A stretch of 64,000 nt of DNA from Candidatus Poribacteria bacterium. GTDB lineage: Bacteria > Poribacteria > WGA-4E > WGA-3G. Shown in pieces: positions 9,169 through 56,108 of this stretch (its first letter is position 1; each line of letters begins with the position of its first letter). The DNA is taken from positions 2,400,001-2,464,000 of the forward strand of contig OZ244048.1 in NCBI GenBank assembly GCA_965215265.1, written 5' to 3'. The translations under genes and the position numbers were made by a program. The notes under the pieces are model-generated. The model saw only the letters and a program-made list of their open reading frames with translations, was not told where the DNA came from and did no database searches.

Positions 9169-9486
9169 TTATGGAGCGTCACTCGCACGCGTCGGCTTTT
9201 GCTGTGAAACAAGGATTTCGTTCGGCCCTGCTTGTTGTGCTGCCATTCTGCGTTCGCGTGCTTTCCGAATCTGTTCTTTGAGGCGTGCGATGCGTTCGGC
9301 ACAACAGTCACAAGATTTCTTTTTCACTGTGGGCTGGGTTGTTGAAGCAGGCGTGGGTGTTTCCACTCGTGCTTGTTGCTGGGGTGTCTGCGTGTCACGT
9401 GTCTGTGTTGCGTAACTGATAACGCCCAAGCCGAGTGCGATGATGGCAAGGGTGACAATGCAGTAGAAAAGATATATCTTTTTCAT
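9169..9486 (-). CDS. Small membrane-anchored/secreted protein with CxCC motif and coiled coil
   Basis: N-terminal hydrophobic segment, T/P-rich linker, KKKSCDCCAERIARL. Its ATG abuts the stop of the upstream gene. Confidence 0.7.
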   Translation of the reverse strand: MKKIYLFYCIVTLAIIALGLGVISYATQTRDTQTPQQQARVETPTPASTTQPTVKKKSCDCCAERIARLKEQIRKARERRMAAQQAGPNEILVSQQKPTRASDAP

Positions 9487-10599
9487 TCAGTCGTTCTCCT
9501 TATTTCTGCGGATGAGACGTTCAACCTGTTTTGCGATGCCTGGATCTGATTCTTTGAGTCGACGGAGTCCTTCTTCCGGACCATAGCGATTCAAGGTTTG
9601 TAGTGCGCGGTTGAAACGTTCCGGCGAAAAGTATTTACGCAGGGCTGTCTCTATATTTTCTTCGCTAAGTGCTTTGAAATCCGATTGCCTTAGCGGTGCC
9701 GTCGGCTCTATCACGAGGTCTGCCGCTGTTTTGGGTAGGGCTGGAACGTCGTCTTTTTCGTCTGATGTCAAATCTCTTTGCGGACTTCGTATCGGATCTG
9801 ATGGGCTGACAGTTGAGCGATCCACTGATATCTCTTCAGAAGTTGAGAGGGGCTGTGTCCGCGTTTCTCCTAATGCTTCCGTTGACTGCATCGCCCTGTT
9901 TTTTATCTCCTTGAGCCAAGATACGGCACTATCTAGATTCATATCTCGTAGCGAAATATTAGAGCCAAAATGGGCAAGATACCACGCCGATGCCCGTTCA
10001 TCTGCCATAAATTTATTCAACACGCCGCTATCATAGCCGCCATTTTCAATGATCATAGCCGTTAGTTTTTGGCGCATTTCCGGCTCATAATCCGAAGGGT
10101 CGCCCACAGGAAAGTGTTTGCGAAACGGCTGGTGCAACAGATCTCTGGAAATCGACAATCCTTTATCTGCTAAGAAATTCATCAGCTCATTGTAAGTCGC
10201 GCCGCTATTGATGAGGTCAAGATACTCTTGGGATTCTACAATCTCATAATATCTTTTTACCTCTGGCTTCGCGAGCCTTTCAGGCGTTTGCCAGCTCTTT
10301 TGCCGATCTATTATCACTTTCAGCCTTGCTTCTACGTTACGTGGATGTGAAATCGGTAAATTTGGATCCGTCACATCCACGAGAGTTATTTCATTATCAC
10401 CATCCTTGTCTACAAAATCCTTCGAGCTCGTTTCTGTTTTCTGAGGCGTAGAAGCCGCATCGCTCGCAGATTTTGGTGCCGTAGCCCGATAGATTGTCTT
10501 GACTTCTGGGGTATCTGTCGTTGACAATTTCCATAAGGCAAAAACAATCAGGACACTCAGGAGCATGAGAATTGGATACAAAACTCGTTTTTCCTTCAT
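9487..10599 (-). CDS. Uncharacterised single-TM protein ('YGPEEG..DP' C-terminal family)
   Basis: N-terminal TM after MKEKR; C-terminus RYGPEEGLRRLKESDP resembles that of 52301..53170. Confidence 0.75.
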   Translation of the reverse strand: MKEKRVLYPILMLLSVLIVFALWKLSTTDTPEVKTIYRATAPKSASDAASTPQKTETSSKDFVDKDGDNEITLVDVTDPNLPISHPRNVEARLKVIIDRQKSWQTPERLAKPEVKRYYEIVESQEYLDLINSGATYNELMNFLADKGLSISRDLLHQPFRKHFPVGDPSDYEPEMRQKLTAMIIENGGYDSGVLNKFMADERASAWYLAHFGSNISLRDMNLDSAVSWLKEIKNRAMQSTEALGETRTQPLSTSEEISVDRSTVSPSDPIRSPQRDLTSDEKDDVPALPKTAADLVIEPTAPLRQSDFKALSEENIETALRKYFSPERFNRALQTLNRYGPEEGLRRLKESDPGIAKQVERLIRRNKEND

Positions 10600-10685: not shown

Positions 10686-10967
10686 CTAATGATCCTCATT
10701 GATGTCATGTGAACAAGCTGTAGAAGCAGCGGCACAGGCGCTTCCCATAATACTCCACGCCGTATTACATAATTCGGGATCATAGACCTCACCGCTGTAA
10801 CAATAATACATTACTAATGTATAGGCACCCGAGCACATTTGTTGTAAACCGTCACATTCTGAGGAATTATCGTGTGCATCCGTCTTCAGGACGAATAGAC
10901 TGACAGTCGTGAAACCTACAGCAAGGATACAAACAATAGCAATCGTCTGGCATAAAGACATTTTCAT
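10686..10967 (-). CDS. Secreted cysteine-rich peptide (6 Cys in mature region)
   Basis: AAGGAG RBS; signal peptide ending TDA; mature part Cx6Cx10Cx10Cx10Cx6C. Confidence 0.78.
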   Translation of the reverse strand: MKMSLCQTIAIVCILAVGFTTVSLFVLKTDAHDNSSECDGLQQMCSGAYTLVMYYCYSGEVYDPELCNTAWSIMGSACAAASTACSHDINEDH

Positions 10968-11260
10968 TGGTTTTCTCCTTTATTTTTCGGGGACTGCTGT
11001 CAGGAAAGATCTGGCAATCTCCCTATAAGGTGCTAACCAAAAAGTGTCACAAAATGCATCCATTCTATAATACAATTTAGGTTCACGCTGTCCTACCTAA
11101 ATTATGGCAGTGCAGCGTCTAGGATTGCTAGTGACATCCTCGGCACACCTCTCAATTTGCAGGAGATATCAAATAGTATAACACATCTCCTACCTTAAAT
11201 TCACTAAAAAAAACAAGTTTCGGACATTTACTGTTTTGCGTTCACTATACGTTAACATCT

Positions 11261-12049
11261 CTACCTCTTCCTCTTAATTTCGTTACGAACCTTTGTGGAT
11301 ACTGAAGCCGTGGCGGGTTCTCTTGTGGATGTTCTCCACTGTTTTATCACACGCGCCACTTTATCACTCACCGCTTGAGCGGAAAAAGCTACATGTTTGG
11401 CAATCTCCGCCGGAGATTGTCCGTCTAAATACCGCTCCATTATTTTGAATTCTGCCGCAGGCAGAGAACGGAGCAACTCCTCCAACTGCGGGGCGATACT
11501 TTTTAACCACGCCTCCGCCCGTTTCAGTCTTTTTCGCGTCGCCTCCGGCGTTAAGCCTAACGCTTCCGCTATTTCTATAGGCTTGAACCCGTCTAAAAAG
11601 AGGTCCATCGCCTGGTCCATCTCGGAAAGGAGGCGCAGGAGTCTAGCCAATCGCTCGCGCCTTTCCTGCTTTTGTGCCGTCTGCCTCGCTGCGTCAATAG
11701 ACGCTGACCCTATCGCTTGCTCGGCAGGTGGCAGTGCATCTAAAGAGACGAACCGGGCACCTTCTGGCAGGTGGTCTGCTCTGCTCAGAGCGGCTCTTCG
11801 TCTATCAATCGCGACATTCTGAGCGGTTTTATATAACCATCCCGGCAACTTCTCAGGATGCTTGATTTTTTCGCGCCCTTGGAAGGCTTTACTGAAGGTG
11901 TCGTTAGCAACCTCCTCAGCATCCTGCGGATTTCTTAAAATGCGGAACGCAGCCTTAAACACGCCGTGGTAATACCTTTTAAAAATCCGCGTGAAACTGT
12001 CTGTGTCCCCTGTTTGTAAGAAATGCCGATTGAGTTCTACCTCATTCAT
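11261..12049 (-). CDS. ECF-type sigma-70 factor with duplicated region-4-like HTH
   Basis: DAEEVANDTF and WLYKTAQNVAIDRRR (region 2); EIAEALGLTPEATRKRLKRA (region 4); a second EIAKHVAFSAQAV HTH-like segment. Confidence 0.88.
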   Translation of the reverse strand: MNEVELNRHFLQTGDTDSFTRIFKRYYHGVFKAAFRILRNPQDAEEVANDTFSKAFQGREKIKHPEKLPGWLYKTAQNVAIDRRRAALSRADHLPEGARFVSLDALPPAEQAIGSASIDAARQTAQKQERRERLARLLRLLSEMDQAMDLFLDGFKPIEIAEALGLTPEATRKRLKRAEAWLKSIAPQLEELLRSLPAAEFKIMERYLDGQSPAEIAKHVAFSAQAVSDKVARVIKQWRTSTREPATASVSTKVRNEIKRKR

Positions 12050-26996: not shown

Positions 26997-28028
26997 ATGC
27001 AAAAACGTGCATGGATAGTCACATCCATCATCCCGGCCCTGCTTATCTGTGGAACCGTCGTTGTACTACTCAATAATCAGCGAGAACTTCCCGGTGAGTT
27101 AGTGCTTGCTCAAGAGCGCATCGACTTTGGAGCTGTTGCGGTGTGGGAGGGACCCGTCACCAAGAGTCTCACAGCGAGAAACGTAGGCGAAACCCGCCTT
27201 CAAATTGGCAGAATTCAACCAGGCTGCACTTATGCTCAGATTGAGGGACCTAGTGTGCTCCCTCCCAGAGCGGACGGAACGTTCAAAATTGTCCTAAATC
27301 CTGAAACGCTTCCACCGGACCCGCGCCCTACAACGGCGACGTTTTTCACGGATAGCCCCAAAACACCACAAGTCTATTTGACAATTGTCGCTTCCACCGT
27401 CCCATTTGCTGCACTGAGCGCCGAGATTTGCGATTTCGGAGCCATCCTACCAAACACACAGCATAAAAAGAAGGTTGAACTCTATCTGAACGCCCCGCTG
27501 AACTTGGATGCAGTCCGGCTCCTACCATCAAATCAACCCTCTTTAACCTGGGAAATGGAACGAGAGCTAGGGCATCACACAGCACCGCTAACCGCACTCC
27601 TGACGGTTCATTTAGGCCCCTTGCAAAACAGAAAACGCTTTTCCGGCCAACTCACGGTTGCTTTTCCGAACGAACGGACGTTGACGCTGCCCGTCATCGC
27701 CCACGTTGTCGGCCCCGTGACAGTACAGCCACAAACCCTTTCCTACGGAGCCATCCCATCTGAAACAGAGCCTACGTTAGAAGTCACACTGTCCGCGAAA
27801 ACGCCTTTTGAAGTCCTAAACGTAGAAGCACCGGAGGTTTTGCAGGTGGTGTTCCAGGCGGAGGCACTCTCTGTCGCACAAAACCGGAAACGCCTAAAAA
27901 TTGTGTGGAAATCCTCAAATTCGCCTCAATTGCTGCGTGAAGAAATACGAGTCAAGACCACGGCAGACGCTTTAACTCTCCGCATACCTGTTTATGGATT
28001 CAGAACTCACGCAACTTCAGAACCCTAA
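26997..28028 (+). CDS. DUF1573-like Ig-fold repeat protein
   Basis: IDFG..., NVGETRLQI..IQPGCTY and FTDSPKTP (DUF1573-type), then two further DFG/SYG Ig-like repeats; N-terminal TM. Confidence 0.75.
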   Translation: MQKRAWIVTSIIPALLICGTVVVLLNNQRELPGELVLAQERIDFGAVAVWEGPVTKSLTARNVGETRLQIGRIQPGCTYAQIEGPSVLPPRADGTFKIVLNPETLPPDPRPTTATFFTDSPKTPQVYLTIVASTVPFAALSAEICDFGAILPNTQHKKKVELYLNAPLNLDAVRLLPSNQPSLTWEMERELGHHTAPLTALLTVHLGPLQNRKRFSGQLTVAFPNERTLTLPVIAHVVGPVTVQPQTLSYGAIPSETEPTLEVTLSAKTPFEVLNVEAPEVLQVVFQAEALSVAQNRKRLKIVWKSSNSPQLLREEIRVKTTADALTLRIPVYGFRTHATSEP

Positions 28029-28038
28029 CCCAATGGGT

Positions 28039-28091
28039 GGCAGGTAAAAGGTAATCTTGTCTCATGGACAGACAAAGATACCTATCCTGCC
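28039..28091. repeat. GGCAGG...CCTGCC REP-like element (inverted copy)
   Basis: Reverse complement matches the 9012 and 33945 copies. Confidence 0.8.
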
Positions 28092-28105
28092 ACTTGCAAG
28101 AAGAC

Positions 28106-30799
28106 ATGTGGATATCTACCCGGAAGACAGTTCCAATCGTTTCATTTTTGCTGCTCAGCACTTCAATCCTTCTCTCTATTTGCATCCGGACAGCCAATCT
28201 ACCCCAATTAGAACGAAAATATCTGCTGGGAACCGATGCGTATCATTTCCTTCGACAAGCCGAACTGATTGTTTCTGAAGGGCACCTACCTAACATTGAT
28301 ACACGGCGCTGGCAACCCGAAGGACGCGATCTGAGGACTTCGCTGAACCTCTTCTCTTACGTCCTTGCCTACAGCTATCACCTTGTGCACCGGTTTTTTC
28401 CATCGCTCAGCCTCTACGTTGTGGCTGTCTACGCACCTATTATCTGCTACGCGTTCTCTCTATTGGTACTTTACGGGTTATGGCGGAACGTTTTTGATAC
28501 ACCGACCGCACTCCTTGCTGTTAACTTTACCGCAATTTGCCCAACGTTGAACCTACACCGTTCGAGTGCAGGATTCGCAGACAGAGATGCGTTTGTGCTA
28601 CTGCTCTGGCTCATTATGTTCCTCTTTTACCTGAAATCCTCAGAAAGTCTGCGGCGAACTAGGCAGCGGGTGGTTTGTTTACCGTTCAAAGCGTACTTTT
28701 ACGCGATTCTCTCTGGCATGACGGCAGGCTTGCTCGCACTCACTTGGGAAGGTGTGGGCTTGGCAACAGTGATTCTCGTTATCTGGCTCGGTTTGCGTGT
28801 GCTGAGAGGGCACTTTTCGCAGGCGGATTGGCTAATTTATAACGTCTGGTATCTCTGTTTTATGACACTTTCGCTTACGTTTACCCGTGCCTATCACAAT
28901 ATCTGGCTGCCTTACACCTTCCTCGCCCTTGTGCTTCCAACCTTTTTCCATATCTGGCTCTGTCTCTCATTGTTAAAAAACGGAGAATACCGCTGCATCA
29001 TGTTACGGGCATTTCACTCACTGTTTGCCACCGCGGCTTGTACAGGTGGGTTTATTACATTGGTCGTGCTAACCGTGTTAAAACCGCCGGACCTCCGAGA
29101 GTTCTTTCAACAACTTTTTGACAATTTTATCTCGCCTCTCGGCAGCAGCCCGCTCATGCAGTCTATTACTGAACTTGCTGAGTTGAGTGGAATGCGGTTT
29201 CTGACGACATATTCAGTGACAGGACTGGCGGCAATGGCAGGTTGTGGTTTACTCGCTTATCGTTTCTTCGCGCAGGAAAGAATTGTCCCTGCAAGCAGGG
29301 CGAATTCTTATCCTAAAAATCACAGCACGTTTTTTTGGTTCGCACTCCTCGGTTTCGAAACCCTTCTCTGTGGAACCCTTTTCTCTCTGTTCATCGCAAA
29401 TACGAAATTCTCTTTCGCAATCTATAGTCTTTCTCTTTGTGTGGGTACGCTCGCGCTCGTAGGTGCCTACCACTTCTGCCGAAGTGCGGATACTGTCAAT
29501 AGCGCAAACAACAAATTACTGCTGCTATTGGTGTGGGGGCTCATCTTGCTTTTTAGCAGCAGGGGTGCAGAGCGATACCTCTTTTTTCTGGATGTGTTAC
29601 TCCATGCACTGAGCAGTTTTCTGATAATCCAGATACTTCGTTTTGTTACAGCGAGTACTTCAAACGAAAAAGCCCGTGAACACAGCACAAATCTGGAGTT
29701 GTGTGCGCTATGTCTGCTCGTAGCATCGGAATTATATGTCGCTACTCGTCTCTTCTCCGGGATAAATACCCCGGTTTGGATGCTTGTGGGCGTGGCACTG
29801 CTCAGCACGGTTTTCGGGATGTTCCTGCTGCACCAATTGGCAGGCATGGAAGCCTCTTATTTTCACAGATTCGCTTACCTCGCTGTGGTACTACTCCTCA
29901 TCTTACTCACGAGCTCAGACGTGTTCTACAAAGGGTTTGTACGCGCAAGTACCGAGTCGCTACGTGAAACTGCCACACCACACCCACCGCAGTTACAAGC
30001 TAGTTTCGCCGACATTGCGGTGCATACCGATGACGATGCAACAATTGCGGCATGGTGGGATTACGGTAGTCTGATTAACTATTTTACCAAACGCACGACT
30101 GTCGTTGACAGTGACCACTACATGCCCGCACGGATAAGGGCTATGGCACAGCATGTTTTTAGCGGCACCTCTCCTACAGAGGCACTCACTTTTTTACGCG
30201 CACACAACGCCACCCATCTGCTGATAACGACAAACGAACTGCTTCGATTGGATACAATCACCTATACCGGAACTGACGATGGTTATGACCGTTTAGCCTC
30301 TGTCCATTTTTTGACACCTATTCGGAGTAAACAGGTGGATGCCTCTATGGAACAGACAGACTTCATACTGCACAATTCTCAAACGACGGATACCTTAGCA
30401 GTGAATTCAGAAATCTACCCGCCTGGGGAGTGGAGGCTGTACGGTGTCTCACTCACTTACGATAGAACGAACAACGCTTGGACAGCAATAGTTCACGGCA
30501 CGGCAGGCAACCGAGAATTCGCGCTCCCGCCGAGCGAGCTTCAGGTAGGCACAACGTCCATTACTTATGATAACGCGTGTGTACCAGGGACGATTGTTAT
30601 CTTTCCAAACCATGCCGGAGAGAACCTACAGGCATTCTACGTTTCTGCACGCGCCAGACTCATGCTGACAGTGCGGCTCTACCTCTTTCTAGAAGATATA
30701 CCGGAGTTTTCATTGGTATATGATACCAATGCCACAGCGCGGTGTGAACCGTATGGACTTCGGCTTTTTCGTATATCTCCGTACCGTCAACGCTTATGA
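28106..30799 (+). CDS. STT3/PglB/AglB-family oligosaccharyltransferase
   Basis: EL1 'GTDAYHFLRQAE', 'GFADRD' (DxD-like), 'SITE' (TIxE/SVSE-like) and the hallmark 'AWWDYG'; many TM helices. Start uncertain because the ATG at 28064 lies in a repeat. Confidence 0.88.
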   Translation: MWISTRKTVPIVSFLLLSTSILLSICIRTANLPQLERKYLLGTDAYHFLRQAELIVSEGHLPNIDTRRWQPEGRDLRTSLNLFSYVLAYSYHLVHRFFPSLSLYVVAVYAPIICYAFSLLVLYGLWRNVFDTPTALLAVNFTAICPTLNLHRSSAGFADRDAFVLLLWLIMFLFYLKSSESLRRTRQRVVCLPFKAYFYAILSGMTAGLLALTWEGVGLATVILVIWLGLRVLRGHFSQADWLIYNVWYLCFMTLSLTFTRAYHNIWLPYTFLALVLPTFFHIWLCLSLLKNGEYRCIMLRAFHSLFATAACTGGFITLVVLTVLKPPDLREFFQQLFDNFISPLGSSPLMQSITELAELSGMRFLTTYSVTGLAAMAGCGLLAYRFFAQERIVPASRANSYPKNHSTFFWFALLGFETLLCGTLFSLFIANTKFSFAIYSLSLCVGTLALVGAYHFCRSADTVNSANNKLLLLLVWGLILLFSSRGAERYLFFLDVLLHALSSFLIIQILRFVTASTSNEKAREHSTNLELCALCLLVASELYVATRLFSGINTPVWMLVGVALLSTVFGMFLLHQLAGMEASYFHRFAYLAVVLLLILLTSSDVFYKGFVRASTESLRETATPHPPQLQASFADIAVHTDDDATIAAWWDYGSLINYFTKRTTVVDSDHYMPARIRAMAQHVFSGTSPTEALTFLRAHNATHLLITTNELLRLDTITYTGTDDGYDRLASVHFLTPIRSKQVDASMEQTDFILHNSQTTDTLAVNSEIYPPGEWRLYGVSLTYDRTNNAWTAIVHGTAGNREFALPPSELQVGTTSITYDNACVPGTIVIFPNHAGENLQAFYVSARARLMLTVRLYLFLEDIPEFSLVYDTNATARCEPYGLRLFRISPYRQRL

Positions 30800-51331: not shown

Positions 51332-51520
51332 TTGTGATTTCCTTAGCGATACCGAGCATGAAGCGGCCGCCTTCTTGCGGAGGCAGAGATGCACAGCTTC
51401 CTGCTTTGTGTAAGCGTTTTAATCCGATTAAAGCGAGGGCTTGTAAGATGCTGTCGCAGCTTATACTGTCTAGGGCTTATTGACGAACTGATTTCCACGG
51501 GTTTCGGGTAATAAGAGACG

Positions 51521-51597
51521 GTGTTATTAACGTTAAGCCCACTTAACGTTAATAAGAATTGTGTTATTAACGTTAAACCCACTTAACGTTAATAAGA
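51521..51597. repeat. Two tandem 40-bp-period units, each a perfect 13-bp inverted repeat
   Basis: TTATTAACGTTAA-(G/A)CCCAC-TTAACGTTAATAA twice, giving four TTAACGTTAA palindromes. Confidence 0.9.
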
Positions 51598-51664
51598 GAC
51601 GGAACTCCGTTGCAACAGCTTTATGTTAAGTTTAGCATAAAGTTGATTTGGATGCAATTCGGGT

Positions 51665-51868
51665 TTAGGAGACTAACTGTTGCGTGAGGTCCTTTAATAT
51701 TGTCTCTAACTCATGCTCGAAGAGTTGGTAGACTTTGGCTCCGTTTCCGCGTGCTGCAAAAGGTGCGTATTCAAAATCGGCTATGCGGATGTCAAGCGAA
51801 ATGGCGATGTGCTCGCGTATCATCTCAAGCCATGTGTGTTGTTCTTCGGTGAAGGTCTGCGCGGTGAC
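51665..51868 (-). pseudogene. hsdR: Type I restriction subunit HsdR C-terminal remnant
   Basis: The minus strand reads TFTEEQHTWLEMIREHIAISLDIRIADFEYAPFAARG...LFEHELETILKDLTQQLVS*, an EcoEI-R C-terminal-like pattern. No start or N-terminal part is present. Confidence 0.75.
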
Positions 51869-52300
51869 TAATTGTGAAATTGTCGGTTGACGGTTGCGGT
51901 GATCGGAGATTCGCAGGAGAAGGTAGTGACCTAAAGGTCAATACCTTACCTACGAAAAGGCTCTCGAGAAAGGTGTTGTCCGGTGGCGAACCGCATCAAG
52001 GCGCAGATCAACTCTTTTAGACTGAACGAAAGATGTTTTGACGGAGGTGAAATTTATGTTTTTAATATGCTACGATCCAGCTCTTGAATGTTGAGAAGTT
52101 TTTCTGATAATTTCAAGTTTTTTTTGTGGGATCCGATAAAAATTGAAAAAAATGTAAGATGAGGTATAAACTTTTACAAGTTCATCTTTATACGTTATAA
52201 TATAGGTGAAGAGGCAGCTAACGCGAACGAACTGATGCAATGGACGTATCAGCGTGACGCATGTAATCTTAACTCTTCACATGAAATAGGAGAAAGAGAA

Positions 52301-53170
52301 ATGTATAGGTGGCTTTGGTTAATTTGCGTTTTCACGGTGCTTTTTTCTATTGGAATTGTAATATATCTCGAGTTTGACAAAAGGAACTTTGAAAACAGTC
52401 TTCCGAACGTGCAGCACCTTGTTGAACAGAAGCAGCATGAGCAGCGCTTGGATGACACGACTCACAAGGTGACAGTCCCTTCTGAGGACACCGTAAAAAA
52501 AGAGGTATCTGATGATTACGATTGGCAAAGCGATGATGAGGCAGCCGACATCAAAGCAGACAAAGATCCGTGGGCCCAGTTAAGTTCACTAGATGCTGAT
52601 ACGGTGGAAGACGGATCCGAGGAGCAATACCCACCTCAAGGTTGGTGGCGTACACTTGACCCTGAGTTATATGCCGAATATTGTCGTGCACAACTCATCA
52701 AACAGTTTAGTGATGTGCCACAAATTGAGAGTCTCGCAGATGCGATTGCGGCTGGAAGGGCTAAGTTAAGGGCATACATACCGAGGACACTTGATGAATC
52801 AATAGCACAGGCGGAGGCAACGTATGTCCTATGGCCTCATGAGGATACTCTGAGGACCATTGAACATCTACACGAAATTAGGGCATCAGGACAACCTTAT
52901 AATCCAACCTATGGTCCTCGGATCAGACCTCCAGAAAATCCGGTTCAGCATCTGGAGCCGGTTCTTCTCCCGCTAATAAAAGAATATGGCGAGCTAGAAG
53001 GGATTAGAGTCTTCAAAACTCTTGATCCGCACGGGGCAATGGAGTTAAAACACGCTATGATGCAGGATGCCATAACGGTTGGTGAGACAAATCCGGGGTA
53101 TTATGAGGCAAAGATGAAGGCGATAGAAGAAGCCTTCGGTGACATAGATGTCTATGCTCCGGAAGACTAG
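52301..53170 (+). CDS. Uncharacterised single-TM protein ('YGxxEG..DP' family)
   Basis: AGGAG RBS, N-terminal TM, acidic linker, C-terminal EYGELEGIRVFKTLDP. Confidence 0.72.
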   Translation: MYRWLWLICVFTVLFSIGIVIYLEFDKRNFENSLPNVQHLVEQKQHEQRLDDTTHKVTVPSEDTVKKEVSDDYDWQSDDEAADIKADKDPWAQLSSLDADTVEDGSEEQYPPQGWWRTLDPELYAEYCRAQLIKQFSDVPQIESLADAIAAGRAKLRAYIPRTLDESIAQAEATYVLWPHEDTLRTIEHLHEIRASGQPYNPTYGPRIRPPENPVQHLEPVLLPLIKEYGELEGIRVFKTLDPHGAMELKHAMMQDAITVGETNPGYYEAKMKAIEEAFGDIDVYAPED

Positions 53171-53285
53171 GCGGCATGCTGTTTAGATGATCTGTGCCGG
53201 AGGGTAGATGCCATTGGCATTTCCTACAGTTAAAGAAGTGCCAATGGCACACCCCGTGCGATGCTTGACTGGAGGAATTTCAGAA

Positions 53286-53780
53286 GTGAAAACCATCCGA
53301 ACAATATCACATGTCGTGAAATGGGTACTCTTGTGCTCAATTCTGTTTATAGCCTTCTGGATCCGAATTCAAGGGGTTTCCAACATCCCAACTGGGCAGT
53401 TTACTGAAACCGATGCCTATCTGTATTATTGGCAGGCAGAGCTAGTTAATGATACTCTGTATAGAGATTTGGCGGTTTCTCACCGTAGAAAAAGAGGAGC
53501 ATCTAGCGGAGTACCTCTTATGGACATCAATATTTGTGCCAACGCTCTTCCTCGCGTCCCCTGCTTATCGTAATGGGCAGGGCTTTTCTACACATTTAAC
53601 GGCCTTGTTACTTATCCCACCTTTAGTCGTTTTGGTGCTGCGGTTTTTTCGGCTTATGCTGCAACTAAACGAGGGGCTCTTAAAATGGCACCGGTCCCAC
53701 GCGTGAAGCATCACGTTTCTGCTGACGCTACTCAGTCTCGCTGCCGGGGTATCTACTTTTTGAGTCAGCAAGACACTTTC
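53286..53780 (+). pseudogene. STT3-like oligosaccharyltransferase remnant
   Basis: FWIRIQG...FTETDAYLYYWQAELV matches the N-terminus of the 28106 protein (IRTAN...GTDAYHFLRQAELI). It is followed by out-of-frame TM fragments and has no WWDYG domain. Confidence 0.7.
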
Positions 53781-53835
53781 GACTTAAGTACCGTCCCGTT
53801 GTGATGATCTTTAGATTCATAACAGAGAAAAACTC

Positions 53836-53895
53836 CGGCGAGGTTTGTAAAGGTTTTAATAGAGCAGCAGCCTTTATAGGGCTGAAATATACAAA
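53836..53895. repeat. Single MITE-like arm
   Basis: CCGGCGAGGTTTGTAAAGGTTTTAATAGAGCAGCAGCCTTTATAGGGCTGAAATATACAAA. Confidence 0.68.
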
Positions 53896-53898
53896 CAC

Positions 53899-53928
53899 TT
53901 GACTTTTTTCAACGCATTGGAGTATAAT
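53899..53928 (+). promoter_or_regulatory. Sigma-70 promoter, probably giving a leaderless rpn transcript
   Basis: TTGACT-18 nt-TATAAT, with the ATG 6 nt downstream at 53935. Confidence 0.55.
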
Positions 53929-54578
53929 AACTTTATGGCACAGGACTATGATAATATGGCAAAAGAGCTGTTGACGGAGCATGCCCACGACATCTCACGG
54001 TTTATACTCGGGGTGGACAATGTTCAGGTGCTTGAAAACCTTGACACCGAACAACAAGTGGTTATCGGGCAGCGTGTCGATAGCACCAAGCGTATCCGCG
54101 TTGATAACGAGGAGGCTATCTTACACATAGAGTTGCAGGTGCGAGATAGCACACCCAAACCGATGTGGGCGCGAACCGCAGCGTATCACGGGTATCTGCT
54201 TGGGGAATACCAGCTGCCGTGCCGGTGTATTCGAATGTGCTGTACTTTCATCCGTCAGCGGGTAGAAGGGATGGGGGTGTGTATGAATATAGTCTGTGTG
54301 GCTACGCCTATCGGTTGCGGTATAAGGTTATCCGTCTGATAGAAGTAGAAGGTGAATCTATTTTAGCGTTGGCTGCGCCTGGGCTGTTGCCGTTCACGCC
54401 GTTGATGAAACCGCCCGGGGGTTTGGAGTCAGCGGCTTGGCTTCAAAGATGTATAACCGCGACGACAGGTACGGATTTGGATGAGGGGGCGCAAGGGGAT
54501 TTACTGTGTGCGCTGTCGGTTTTCGGGGGTATTGTGCATGACGCGTCGCTTTTCAAACGTCTGATACCGGAGGGACTG

Positions 54579-54911
54579 ATGCGAGAATCTAAATATTTCC
54601 AACTGTTACGCGATGAATTTATCGCACAAGGCATAGAACAAGGTATAGAACAAGGTATGGAACGAGGTATAGAACAAGGTATGGAACGAGGCATAGAACA
54701 AGGTATGGAACGAGGCATAGAACAAGGACGCGCTAAAGGACACATCGAGGCTATCTTAGATATCCTTGAGACGCGTTTCCATCCTGGGGCGGTGCACCTC
54801 TTAAAACCGTCTCTGGAAGCCGTCCAAGACATCGAGCGCCTCAAGCACTTATGCCAAGCCGCCGCCACCGCTGAGAACCTTGAGACGTTCATGCAGCACT
54901 TCACCGAATAA
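54579..54911 (+). CDS. Putative internally initiated small Rpn C-terminal protein (RpnS-like)
   Basis: GGAGG followed by an in-frame ATG (MRESKYFQLL...), 110 aa, unaffected by the upstream frameshift. Confidence 0.55.
   Translation: MRESKYFQLLRDEFIAQGIEQGIEQGMERGIEQGMERGIEQGMERGIEQGRAKGHIEAILDILETRFHPGAVHLLKPSLEAVQDIERLKHLCQAAATAENLETFMQHFTE
54627..54728 (+). repeat. 12-bp coding tandem repeat (GIEQ/GMER)
   Basis: C(A/G)AGG(C/T)AT(A/G)GAA units, about 8 copies. Confidence 0.9.
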
Positions 54912-54980
54912 AGTGGTGCCGCTGAGACAACCCAACGCCTACTCGCACACGGCGGAATCGCCCCTCTGTTTACACACGGC

Positions 54981-55133
54981 ATGCTCGTTCGGACACTGTC
55001 GCTCGGGCATCAGCAGGCGGGGTTTTACCGGGCTCCGGCCCGTGCCGCGTATTGGGATGGCCGGAACGCCGTCGGGGAGCCGGTGGCGAGCGGTGTCTAT
55101 TTCTACACGCTCACCGCGAGGGATTTCACCGCA
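54981..55133 (+). pseudogene. FlgD-Ig / T9SS type A sorting-domain-like C-terminal remnant
   Basis: LVRTLSLGHQQAGFY....RAAYWDGRN.VGEPVASGVYFYTLTA.DFTA with no upstream body; the terminal residues are replaced. Confidence 0.75.
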
Positions 55134-55448
55134 GACACCGCCCGCTGCTACCCCAACAACAGACAAAAAGTCACTGATGTGGGATTTACCGGTTTCGGGT
55201 TTCTCTAACCCACTGCTTTTCTCACACTTTTCCAAACAAAAACCTTTCACCACAAACCTTCAAAAAAAAAGGGGGTAAGTGAGTTAGCACTTTTACGTTG
55301 TTTTTTTTTGCCAATACTTGTATAATATAATAGAGGATAGTTCGTAATGTTGGTATGCTCTAGAATTTTTGATTGAGGCATGCCAAGCATTCGTAGGAAA
55401 AATTAGATTTTTTTCGACGCGGAATCTGCTGTGAAGGAGGCGAAAGCT

Positions 55449-56108
55449 ATGTCCTTGAGATGTTATAACCGAAAAATGAAATGTCCTCCATACAAGCATC
55501 AAGGGACTTTTATTGCTACTGACACAAGCGTTAGACGATTATTCCCTGATTTACATCGATGTGCGAAATGTATCGCTTATGCTAATCCTCAACGTCTAGA
55601 TTTACAAGCTCAGTTTTTCTCAGCCGGTTGCGAGGTGCTTGTCCGAAACGGGCCCTTGTATGATCCGGGGCACCGAAGCAGCGCGAACTTTGGCTCCTTC
55701 ATCCGTCCAAAAATCTGTGGGACTTTGATGAATGAAAAACGCCGCGAGCTTGAGTACAGCAGGCGTGCGTCAACCGAGCTCTATCCTCAGTGGAATACGT
55801 GCGAATCAGTAGATGCTGAAATCAACCACGACATCGGGCTGCTGTGGGAAATACCGGATCCTGTCGCTGAATTTGAGGATGAGGTCATCTGGAATATCTT
55901 TGTTCAAGATTTTGAGAAGGCGCTGCCGATACTTGTAAAAAAACTGACGCCCATGGAACAGAGGGTTTTTGCGCTGATTCGCGAGAATCGAGTAAATAGT
56001 GAAATCGCGGCTATCTTGGAACGGACACCGGGACGCATCAGTCAGCTAACGCGACAAGTGGCAGTGAAATTAAGGAAAGCGTGTAAAGAGCTCGGTTTAG
56101 TGGAATAA
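55449..56108 (+). CDS. Divergent sigma-70-family factor
   Basis: AAGGAGG RBS; YDP....ANFGSFIRPKICGTLMNE resembles group 3 region 2; LTPMEQRVF...EIAAILERTPGRISQL is region 4. Confidence 0.7.
   Translation: MSLRCYNRKMKCPPYKHQGTFIATDTSVRRLFPDLHRCAKCIAYANPQRLDLQAQFFSAGCEVLVRNGPLYDPGHRSSANFGSFIRPKICGTLMNEKRRELEYSRRASTELYPQWNTCESVDAEINHDIGLLWEIPDPVAEFEDEVIWNIFVQDFEKALPILVKKLTPMEQRVFALIRENRVNSEIAAILERTPGRISQLTRQVAVKLRKACKELGLVE

Follow-up and report, generated by a model that had tools for sequence, protein, structure and literature searches.

A decayed Poribacteria operon and C-terminally related membrane proteins encoded beside STT3-like transferase genes

What ties a membrane-anchored protein to the broken STT3-like gene that directly follows it? 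The question is raised by a 64,000-nucleotide (nt) stretch of a Candidatus Poribacteria bacterium genome (GenBank assembly GCA_965215265.1, contig OZ244048.1, forward strand, positions 2,400,001 to 2,464,000; the whole stretch is hereafter called the window). The protein, encoded by open reading frame (ORF) A at 52 kb, ends in a motif that resembles the end of the protein encoded by ORF B at 9-12 kb, next to a small Cys-rich peptide gene. A preliminary description of the window had tentatively joined these two loci with a third, which encodes a DUF1573 protein and an STT3, into one modular system. Here, we report that the locus at 52.3-56.1 kb is what remains of one copy of a conserved Poribacteria operon, which encodes a peptide, A, an STT3-like glycosyltransferase of the GT-C type and a regulator with sigma-70 region 4 (sigma-r4). 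The operon is kept in many copies by sponge-symbiont Poribacteria and seems to be previously undescribed.

The intact operon was found in two relatives. In G111 (contig C4), one strand encodes a 100-amino-acid (aa) secreted peptide (YYKCTRDDGKIC ... SCSGCCAPW), an A ortholog (283 aa), an 822-aa STT3-like protein and, last, a 221-aa protein with a Cys-rich N-terminus and sigma-70 region 4; G156 (contig C4) repeats this gene order, except that A is present as three tandem copies, and its enzyme has 806 aa. Because these operons are intact and run in the same order, the window locus is read as the same operon, partly destroyed: the peptide is lost, A is kept, the enzyme is gutted, a repeat is inserted, and the regulator is kept 1.6 kb further on. 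The window's regulator is syntenic with its G111 ortholog (46% identity, E 9e-60); its ortholog also follows an A ortholog in G068 and at three further loci, with no STT3-like gene between. No significant match to the G111 or G156 operon peptides was found in the window's genome (best E 0.8). The sequence upstream of A (window 51395-51902) is duplicated at genome position 4446012-4447724 with 91-98% identity, which suggests rearrangement at the place where the operon's peptide gene would be expected.

The STT3-like gene in the window lacks an intact open reading frame and survives as three pieces (Table 1; codon numbers and identities refer to the enzymes that follow the A orthologs in G111:C4 and G156:C4), with ~154 codons deleted between the first two and ~470 C-terminal codons absent. 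These same enzymes are its best matches (summed 231 and 217 bits versus ≤170 for other STT3-like proteins). A 121-aa remnant ORF (53208..53573) with an STT3-like start matches the window's own 911-aa STT3 weakly (E 0.002) and is much closer to an STT3-like paralog elsewhere in the genome (4494354..4496498, 714 aa). That an STT3 N-terminal remnant follows A, as had been described earlier, was borne out; the remnant extends further than described, to 53801. Contigs from four runs of four studies were colinear with the window through the 3' half of A and over the deletion junction, which shows that the gutted gene exists in the population and did not arise by misassembly. In two of the four runs, the G4 stretch at 53745 is G5, abolishing the last frameshift, which may be strain variation or homopolymer error.

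Similarity to the pseudogene ends at the edge of a repeat element, whose five other copies (818-1247 bp, 91-95% identity) begin at the equivalent of 53800-53899 and end at that of 54656-55132. Its ORF is frameshifted in the window (53899..54339 and 54165..54911) and intact elsewhere (319 aa; L130:700-1659, minus strand), with an EQGIEQG repeat near the C-terminus and no Pfam family. An identification as an Rpn/PD-(D/E)XK-type transposase was dropped, as no such match was found in Pfam or NCBIfam. Two short repeats, 54973-55132 (~160 nt) and 55176-55311 (~110-138 nt), have many genomic copies at 73-94% identity.

ORF A looks functional, judged from its open frame and conserved positions. Its ATG at 52301 is preceded by GGAG 8-9 nt upstream, and the protein runs from an N-terminal transmembrane helix through a disordered acidic linker and a helical core with LIKQFSDVPQIE ... 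LWP to a C-terminal extension. Twenty full-length relatives (283-286 aa) share 48-58% identity. Kept among the orthologs are the N-terminal hydrophobic helix (from the alignment), the core YPP..W..T.DP.LYAEY.RAQ..KQF.DVP.I ... LWP and the C-terminal G-x-x-EG-x-R-x-x-K-x-LDP-x-x-A; the Tyr of 'YG' is replaced by H or F in most of them. An AlphaFold2 (AF2) model from 14 sequences was weak (predicted local distance difference test [pLDDT], 56.5), with a helix at residues 2-33, disorder at 34-108 and then helices. Searches of Pfam and NCBIfam returned no family for A, and the ESM Atlas returned solely unnamed clusters at 0.78-0.79, under the useful range. An iterated hidden Markov model (HMM) search from A converged on an A-family of 31 ORFs in the window's genome, whose members start with an anchor that ends Y..D.KRF.ESLP, continue through an acidic/Pro-rich linker and have a helical core of FGDIPEV type; the C-terminal extension is present in 4 of the 31.

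It is within this extension that A resembles B. Pairwise BLASTP of the two proteins gave a single 34-aa match (29% identity), marginal at E 0.013, and hhalign comparison of an A profile (14 orthologs) with a B profile (29 homologs) gave one match over 32 C-terminal columns (probability 81.7%, E 1.1e-5). An HMM of the A C-terminus (48 columns, from A orthologs), searched against the 24,893 ORFs (≥50 aa) of the genome, ranked A first, a B paralog at 2880138 second (E 6e-4), an A paralog next, a small motif protein at 4496401 fourth (E 0.0075), B fifth (E 0.061) and a fourth B-type protein ninth (E 2.1). Genome-wide searches in reverse, with B-motif HMMs, placed A at rank 9-10 with E 0.23-1.3, alone not significant. 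By the hhalign result and the reciprocal HMM ranks, a C-terminal (ct) module of ~32-35 residues is homologous between A and B, and nothing else is: hhalign aligned nothing beyond it, the bodies are not homologous, the iterated A-family HMM (31 ORFs) did not recruit B, and the first-round B search did not recruit A. An iterated search from B was discarded, having drifted after round 1 into unrelated long low-complexity proteins. The ct module is a small helical module that closes the otherwise unrelated A and B; some B homologs have a second, internal copy, and it is fused to the small membrane proteins with a CxCC motif at L051, L054, L057, L060 and L064. The C-terminal motif that the preliminary description saw in A and B is upheld at family level by these HMM ranks and by a profile-profile alignment that is significant where the pairwise one is marginal, and the common architecture holds too, each protein having an N-terminal membrane helix and a disordered linker. 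The single 'YGxxEG..DP' family that it proposed is reduced to the ~32-aa module.

Linkage with STT3-like genes was surveyed from both sides. Of the 176 genomes of the phylum, 120 have STT3-like matches (E ≤ 1e-10), and of the 111 in the window's family, 98 do; six or more copies per genome are common, some with stop codons. On the enzyme side, same-strand upstream genes were counted from HMM tables in the 1.5-kb flanks of the best 29 STT3-like loci outside the window's own genome: an A-family gene was present at 10, a ct-motif gene at 8 and a CxCC gene at 9, and at least one of these at 17 of the 29. On the motif side, the pattern G[PT][EK]EG[LVI]R[RK]LK was scanned in 185,579 species genomes and gave 59 confirmed loci, 57 in Poribacteria records and two from one 'uncultured bacterium' metagenome-assembled genome. 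An STT3-like gene lies downstream on the same strand within 8 kb at 12 of these 59 (two genes partial), where chance adjacency is expected at well under 1% (at most ~8 copies per ~5.5-Mb genome); a CxCC gene is present at 21, mostly immediately after B, and extracytoplasmic function (ECF) sigma genes lie within 8 kb at 22, versus 14 sigma-like matches in the whole 4.83-Mb, single-contig genome of the window. Within the window's genome, 4 of 11 STT3-like pieces lie ≤1 kb from an A-family ORF (0.2 expected; 1 of 20,000 random placements reached 4).

Gene order varies around the same enzyme family. It runs peptide, B, CxCC, enzyme at L095 and L069, and the same with an extra 265-281 aa protein at L085, L075, L070 and L067; an A-family gene, a CxCC-ct fusion and the enzyme at L051, L054, L057 and L064; a B-like gene directly overlapping the enzyme start at L121 and L049; and a ct-bearing A followed by the enzyme in G111, G156 and the window. 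That ct is fused to three different carriers, always beside this enzyme family, argues most strongly that the tie is functional.

The canonical STT3 of the window (28064..30799), which is homologous to the STT3-like enzymes, provided a control. Canonical-type STT3 loci occur in 24 of the 176 genomes; among 29 of these loci, the flanks carried a DUF1573 gene nine times and an A-family, ct or CxCC ORF not once. The locus with DUF1573 and canonical STT3 at 27-31 kb is a separate system, not to be merged with the dying copy at 52-56 kb. The proposal that the three loci form one modular system therefore stands in part: peptide, B or A, STT3-like enzyme and sigma factor are linked in the operons of relatives, and the DUF1573 locus falls outside. 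The pairing of the motif with both a Cys-containing peptide and an oligosaccharyltransferase (OST) also finds support, in that the ct motif marks proteins linked both with small secreted peptides that contain Cys and with an STT3-like enzyme, and the neighborhood comparison suggested for it showed enrichment (12/59 motif loci and 17/29 STT3-like loci, versus 0/29 control loci).

The enzyme of L051 was modeled from 34 sequences (AF2; pLDDT 79.1, predicted template modeling score 0.83). The predicted structure has both the GT-C membrane domain and the C-terminal soluble domain of the STT3 fold, and its first 19 Foldseek matches were yeast and human STT3, archaeal AglB and PglB (8agc_A, 8b6l_I, 7e9s_A, 3rce_A and others; probability 1.00, template modeling score 0.46-0.66). 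Among the enzymes tested, the Pfam STT3 model matched that of L121 alone (3e-14), and NCBIfam TIGR04154 gave a weak match (2.5e-11), far below its cutoff. Residues D51, D165-R166-D167 and E346 are invariant in 34 STT3-like sequences and are assigned, from position and from the description in PMC8342417, to putative DXD and TIXE motifs. The site of WWDYG reads xWx[YFH]G in 37 of 37 distinct proteins, with 24 different pentapeptides (AANWGYG in the enzymes after A orthologs); WWD is kept in none of the 37, and only the second W and the G are retained. A profile search of PDB sequences maps this site to the WWDYG of yeast STT3 (2lgz, E 1.5e-4). According to PMC8342417, the sequon's Ser/Thr pocket is made up of WWDYG and DK/MI; with the WWD pocket absent, canonical N-X-S/T glycosylation is doubtful, and since the enzymes failed this test, they are named STT3-like rather than oligosaccharyltransferases. 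We infer that the linked enzymes are putative active GT-C transferases with a different acceptor rule. A sponge-symbiont phylum carries several copies per genome of this STT3 branch, with the catalytic core and without the sequon-reading motif.

The window's genome has only one intact STT3-like gene of this branch, 4494354..4496498, and nine further fragments are scattered through it. The CxCC/ct gene upstream of the intact copy (4496401-4496809; L038:10402-10810, minus strand) has its membrane helix and its CxCC and ct parts in different frames. At 2885554..2886735 (L039), the N-terminal third of an STT3-like protein (~330 aa) is joined in frame to a sequence that looks by eye like the C-terminal end of an ATP-binding cassette (ABC) transporter ATPase, an apparent fusion by deletion or recombination.

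The 9-12 kb locus, with its ECF sigma, Cys-rich peptide, B and CxCC genes, is the front half of an L095-type operon without the enzyme. B has at least 125 homologs, is widespread in Poribacteria and is best conserved at its C-terminal FSPERFNRAMQTLNRYGPEEGLRRLKESDPEVAKQVERL; it has no Pfam or NCBIfam family, and the ESM Atlas gave no usable match. The three Cys of the CxCC proteins (87-116 aa) are invariant in 25 of 25 sequences, and their homologs stand directly upstream of STT3-like genes in other genomes. No Pfam or NCBIfam family was found for the CxCC protein, the peptides or the extra protein (265-280 aa in these searches). A-family genes lie directly upstream of the closest B ortholog, at L071. 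Four MKMSLCQ-type peptide genes in the genome share a 5' leader with an invariant ~36-nt block ~140-170 nt before the start codon and a conserved ribosome-binding region (CCCCGAAAWATAAAGGAGAA); a 24-nt core of this block has exactly four genomic occurrences, and the block could be a promoter or RNA element. Equating this leader with rRNA-leader copies near 2.30 Mb was set aside, since the match there spans only 27 nt, at the ribosome-binding region. The ECF sigma gene has two more copies, 1894806-1895588 and 1903029-1903637 (92% and 90% protein identity), one frameshifted and one without its N-terminus, both then followed by A-family genes.

Table 1. Features of the window discussed in the text, in window coordinates unless a genome position is stated.
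Feature	Position	Strand	Description
CxCC protein	9169..9486	-	Small single-pass membrane protein, KKKSCDCCAER then basic helix
ORF B	9487..10599	-	370 aa, membrane-anchored, ends in ct module YGPEEGLRRLKESDP
Small secreted Cys-rich peptide gene	10686..10967	-	Conserved signal sequence MKMSLCQ.., conserved 5' leader
Shared 5' leaders	window 10968-11260; genome 1895593-1895850, 2878495-2878625, 2884228-2884444	- (window)	
ECF-type sigma factor	11261..12049	-	Part of the 9-12 kb module; from family searches
DUF1573 protein and canonical STT3 (911 aa)	26997..30799	+	WWDYG intact; separate system
ORF A	52301..53170	+	Intact, 289 aa, membrane-anchored; from alignment of relatives and AF2 model
ct module of A	52967..53068	+	Residues ~223-256, LPLIKEYGELEGIRVFKTLDPHGAMELKHAMMQD; sole part homologous to ORF B
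STT3-like pseudogene	53238..53801	+	Three pieces, directly after A
Pseudogene piece 1	53238..53453	+	Codons 1-72: transmembrane helix 1 and start of external loop 1, with TETDAYLYYWQA; 61-64% identity
Pseudogene piece 2	53446..53748	+	Codons ~227-327, different frame, 58-59% identity
Pseudogene piece 3	53748..53801	+	Codons ~328-345, after 1-nt frameshift in G4 run
Multi-copy repeat element	53800..55132		Terminates pseudogene at about codon 345; 5 other genomic copies
Sigma-70 region-4 protein	55431..56108	+	Cys-rich N-terminus; conserved last operon gene in relatives

The overall best explanation of the ct homology between families, the conserved gene order, the enriched adjacency and the decay of the window's gene, and one that we consider likely, is a decayed operon together with ct-linked membrane proteins that work with an STT3-like transferase. 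The operon would export a small peptide. A, B and CxCC, predicted single-pass proteins, would work with the transferase on the outer side of the inner membrane, either as adaptors or accessory subunits holding the exported peptide encoded with them or as acceptors in their own right. The transferase, keeping the catalytic carboxylates of STT3/AglB/PglB, would move a lipid-linked group onto the peptide or the anchors; because a variable xWx[YFH]G stands where WWDYG is expected, it is unlikely to recognize a canonical N-X-S/T sequon. Control of the operons probably lies with the ECF-type sigma and sigma-r4 proteins encoded next to them. A complex prediction of the L051 enzyme with its upstream CxCC/ct protein scored 0.00, with controls not run, and is evidence neither way. 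The link that the preliminary description drew between ct-motif proteins and STT3-like enzymes is real; its chemistry, as read from sequence, is putative. Were the coupling true, it would supply enzymes with candidate substrates through which a new kind of periplasmic modification of peptides or proteins could be tested, and a function for three uncharacterised families.

Among known systems, STT3/AglB/PglB (GT66) are closest in fold, and the linked enzymes share with them the external-loop-1 Asp, D-x-D and an E in a TIXE-like position; unlike them, they lack WWDYG, occur in many copies per genome, often broken, and are encoded in operons with small secreted peptides and single-pass proteins of unknown families. 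Accessory subunits of the eukaryotic OST include Ost3/Ost6 and MagT1/Tusc3, which have a CxxC motif, and the small single-pass Ost4. As there, Cys-motif and single-pass proteins are encoded here with the catalytic subunit, alongside Cys-rich candidate substrates, an analogy of role only, as no similarity in sequence or domains was detected: unlike Ost3/Ost6, the CxCC proteins have no thioredoxin-family Pfam match and, with one membrane helix and a basic helix, are too short. Campylobacter-type pgl is a dedicated N-glycosylation gene cluster with a bacterial STT3-family enzyme. The operons resemble it in having an STT3-family enzyme in a dedicated cluster, with a GT2 gene following at L095 (Pfam), and differ in that the 1.5-8 kb flanks showed no full glycan-assembly set, the sequon pocket is not kept, and there are dedicated peptide, anchor and sigma factor genes. 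Glycocin clusters such as that of sublancin place a small Cys-rich exported peptide gene by a glycosyltransferase gene, the enzymes being soluble, cytoplasmic S- or O-glycosyltransferases of GT2 type. Here, the enzyme is a polytopic GT-C protein that would act outside the cytoplasm, and no immunity or export genes were recognized. MagT1 is treated in PMC4137057, and PMC8342417 presents bacterial STT3-family enzymes as known mainly from Campylobacter-type N-glycosylation. In the full-text literature, subscription journals aside, nothing was found that links Poribacteria with STT3, GT66, oligosaccharyltransferase or N-glycosylation.

Several observations weigh against this coupling. Twelve of the 29 STT3-like loci have none of the three partner families upstream, and, conversely, an STT3-like gene lies beside only 2 of 29 A-like loci outside the window's genome (1.5-kb flanks), so that most A-family genes stand without one. 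The closest A orthologs (G068, G067 and G065) have no adjoining STT3-like gene, and the loci most closely orthologous to 9-12 kb, L072 and (in part) L071, are also without the enzyme; A and B proteins can therefore persist without an adjacent transferase, and such orphans may act in trans or do something else. Since related genomes share ancestry, fewer independent events underlie the enrichment than its figures suggest. The Pfam STT3 model misses the copy in the window's genome and the enzymes of L095, L085 and L075. Counted by eye, N-X-S/T sequons in three co-encoded peptides number 3, 1 and 0; the pattern is inconsistent and, although no proof, would agree with a lost WWD pocket.

The alternative that survives best, possible though doubtful, makes A, B and CxCC the acceptors, modified on their linkers or ct module, with the small peptides as unrelated cargo or co-substrates. 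Each of them has an N-terminal anchor and a long Thr/Pro/Ser/Asp-rich low-complexity linker of a kind that is often glycosylated, and the high variability of the site equivalent to the Asp of WWD (24 pentapeptides in 37 enzymes) would fit co-variation with acceptors. Nonetheless, conservation of the ct module and the CxCC motif is high, with no obvious pattern of acceptor residues, and many A and B genes have no adjacent transferase; the data do not separate substrate from subunit.

It is unlikely that A, B and CxCC are instead anti-sigma-like membrane partners of the ECF sigma and sigma-r4 proteins, with the transferase as one of several regulated outputs. The frequency of ECF sigma genes near motif loci, the sigma-r4 protein that closes the A operon and a CxCC motif with a basic helix that could bind metal or sigma all fit this idea, but Pfam and NCBIfam searches gave no anti-sigma domain. 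Unlike classical ECF anti-sigma factors, the three proteins have no N-terminal ASD or zf-HC2 before the membrane helix, which starts within the first ~5-15 residues and leaves no cytoplasmic N-terminal domain.

Quite improbable, in our estimate, is that the genes merely travel together in a duplicating, decaying cassette and share no biochemical function. It is true that 11 STT3-like pieces are scattered through the genome together with near-identical copies of A and sigma genes, that several members are frameshifted, and that mobile repeats border the window locus. Yet the same neighbors recur across genera in varied arrangements, with ct fused to A, B or CxCC; start/stop overlaps suggest translational coupling at L051, L095 and L121; and the canonical STT3 control loci show no such neighbors.

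A chance or compositional similarity between the A and B motifs, which would leave the two window loci unrelated, could appeal to the pairwise E of 0.013 over 34 aa and to the reverse-search values of 0.23-1.3, but it is very improbable given the hhalign E of 1.1e-5, the four B-type proteins in the top 9 of 24,893 ORFs, the A-family genes next to the closest B ortholog at L071 and the fact that in other genomes genes of either family are found between a small secreted peptide gene and a following STT3-like gene.

Coupling between the ct-bearing proteins and the transferase can also be extended into a bolder picture, which we put forward tentatively. Poribacteria would hold a multi-copy, fast-turning-over STT3 branch without the sequon pocket, in which each enzyme has its own Cys-rich peptide and ct-joined adaptors and makes a non-canonical periplasmic peptide modification. 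If true, this would be ribosomal-peptide glycosylation (or transfer of another lipid-linked group) built on a GT-C enzyme under ECF sigma control; the variable xWx[YFH]G site would determine a new acceptor rule, and the pathway would perhaps serve the interaction of sponge and symbiont.

Further arrangements were noted around these genes. An A-family gene followed by a 68-aa STT3 N-terminal stub occurs at L121:10736-11634 and L049:3992-4890, so the pairing of A with a truncated STT3 recurs. At 2880138-2882996 (L039:4139-6997), a ct-ended B paralog overlaps the start of a split PMT_2/GT39-like GT-C gene, with a methyltransferase gene next; the ct module may also accompany this second GT-C family. 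After the STT3-like gene at L042, L043, L050, L062, L064, L066 and L068, there is often a gene for a polytopic protein of ~180-210 aa, which by eye looked like a cytidine diphosphate (CDP)-alcohol phosphatidyltransferase, and then one that looked like a methyltransferase; a methyltransferase of this downstream kind in the window's own genome is supported by Pfam.

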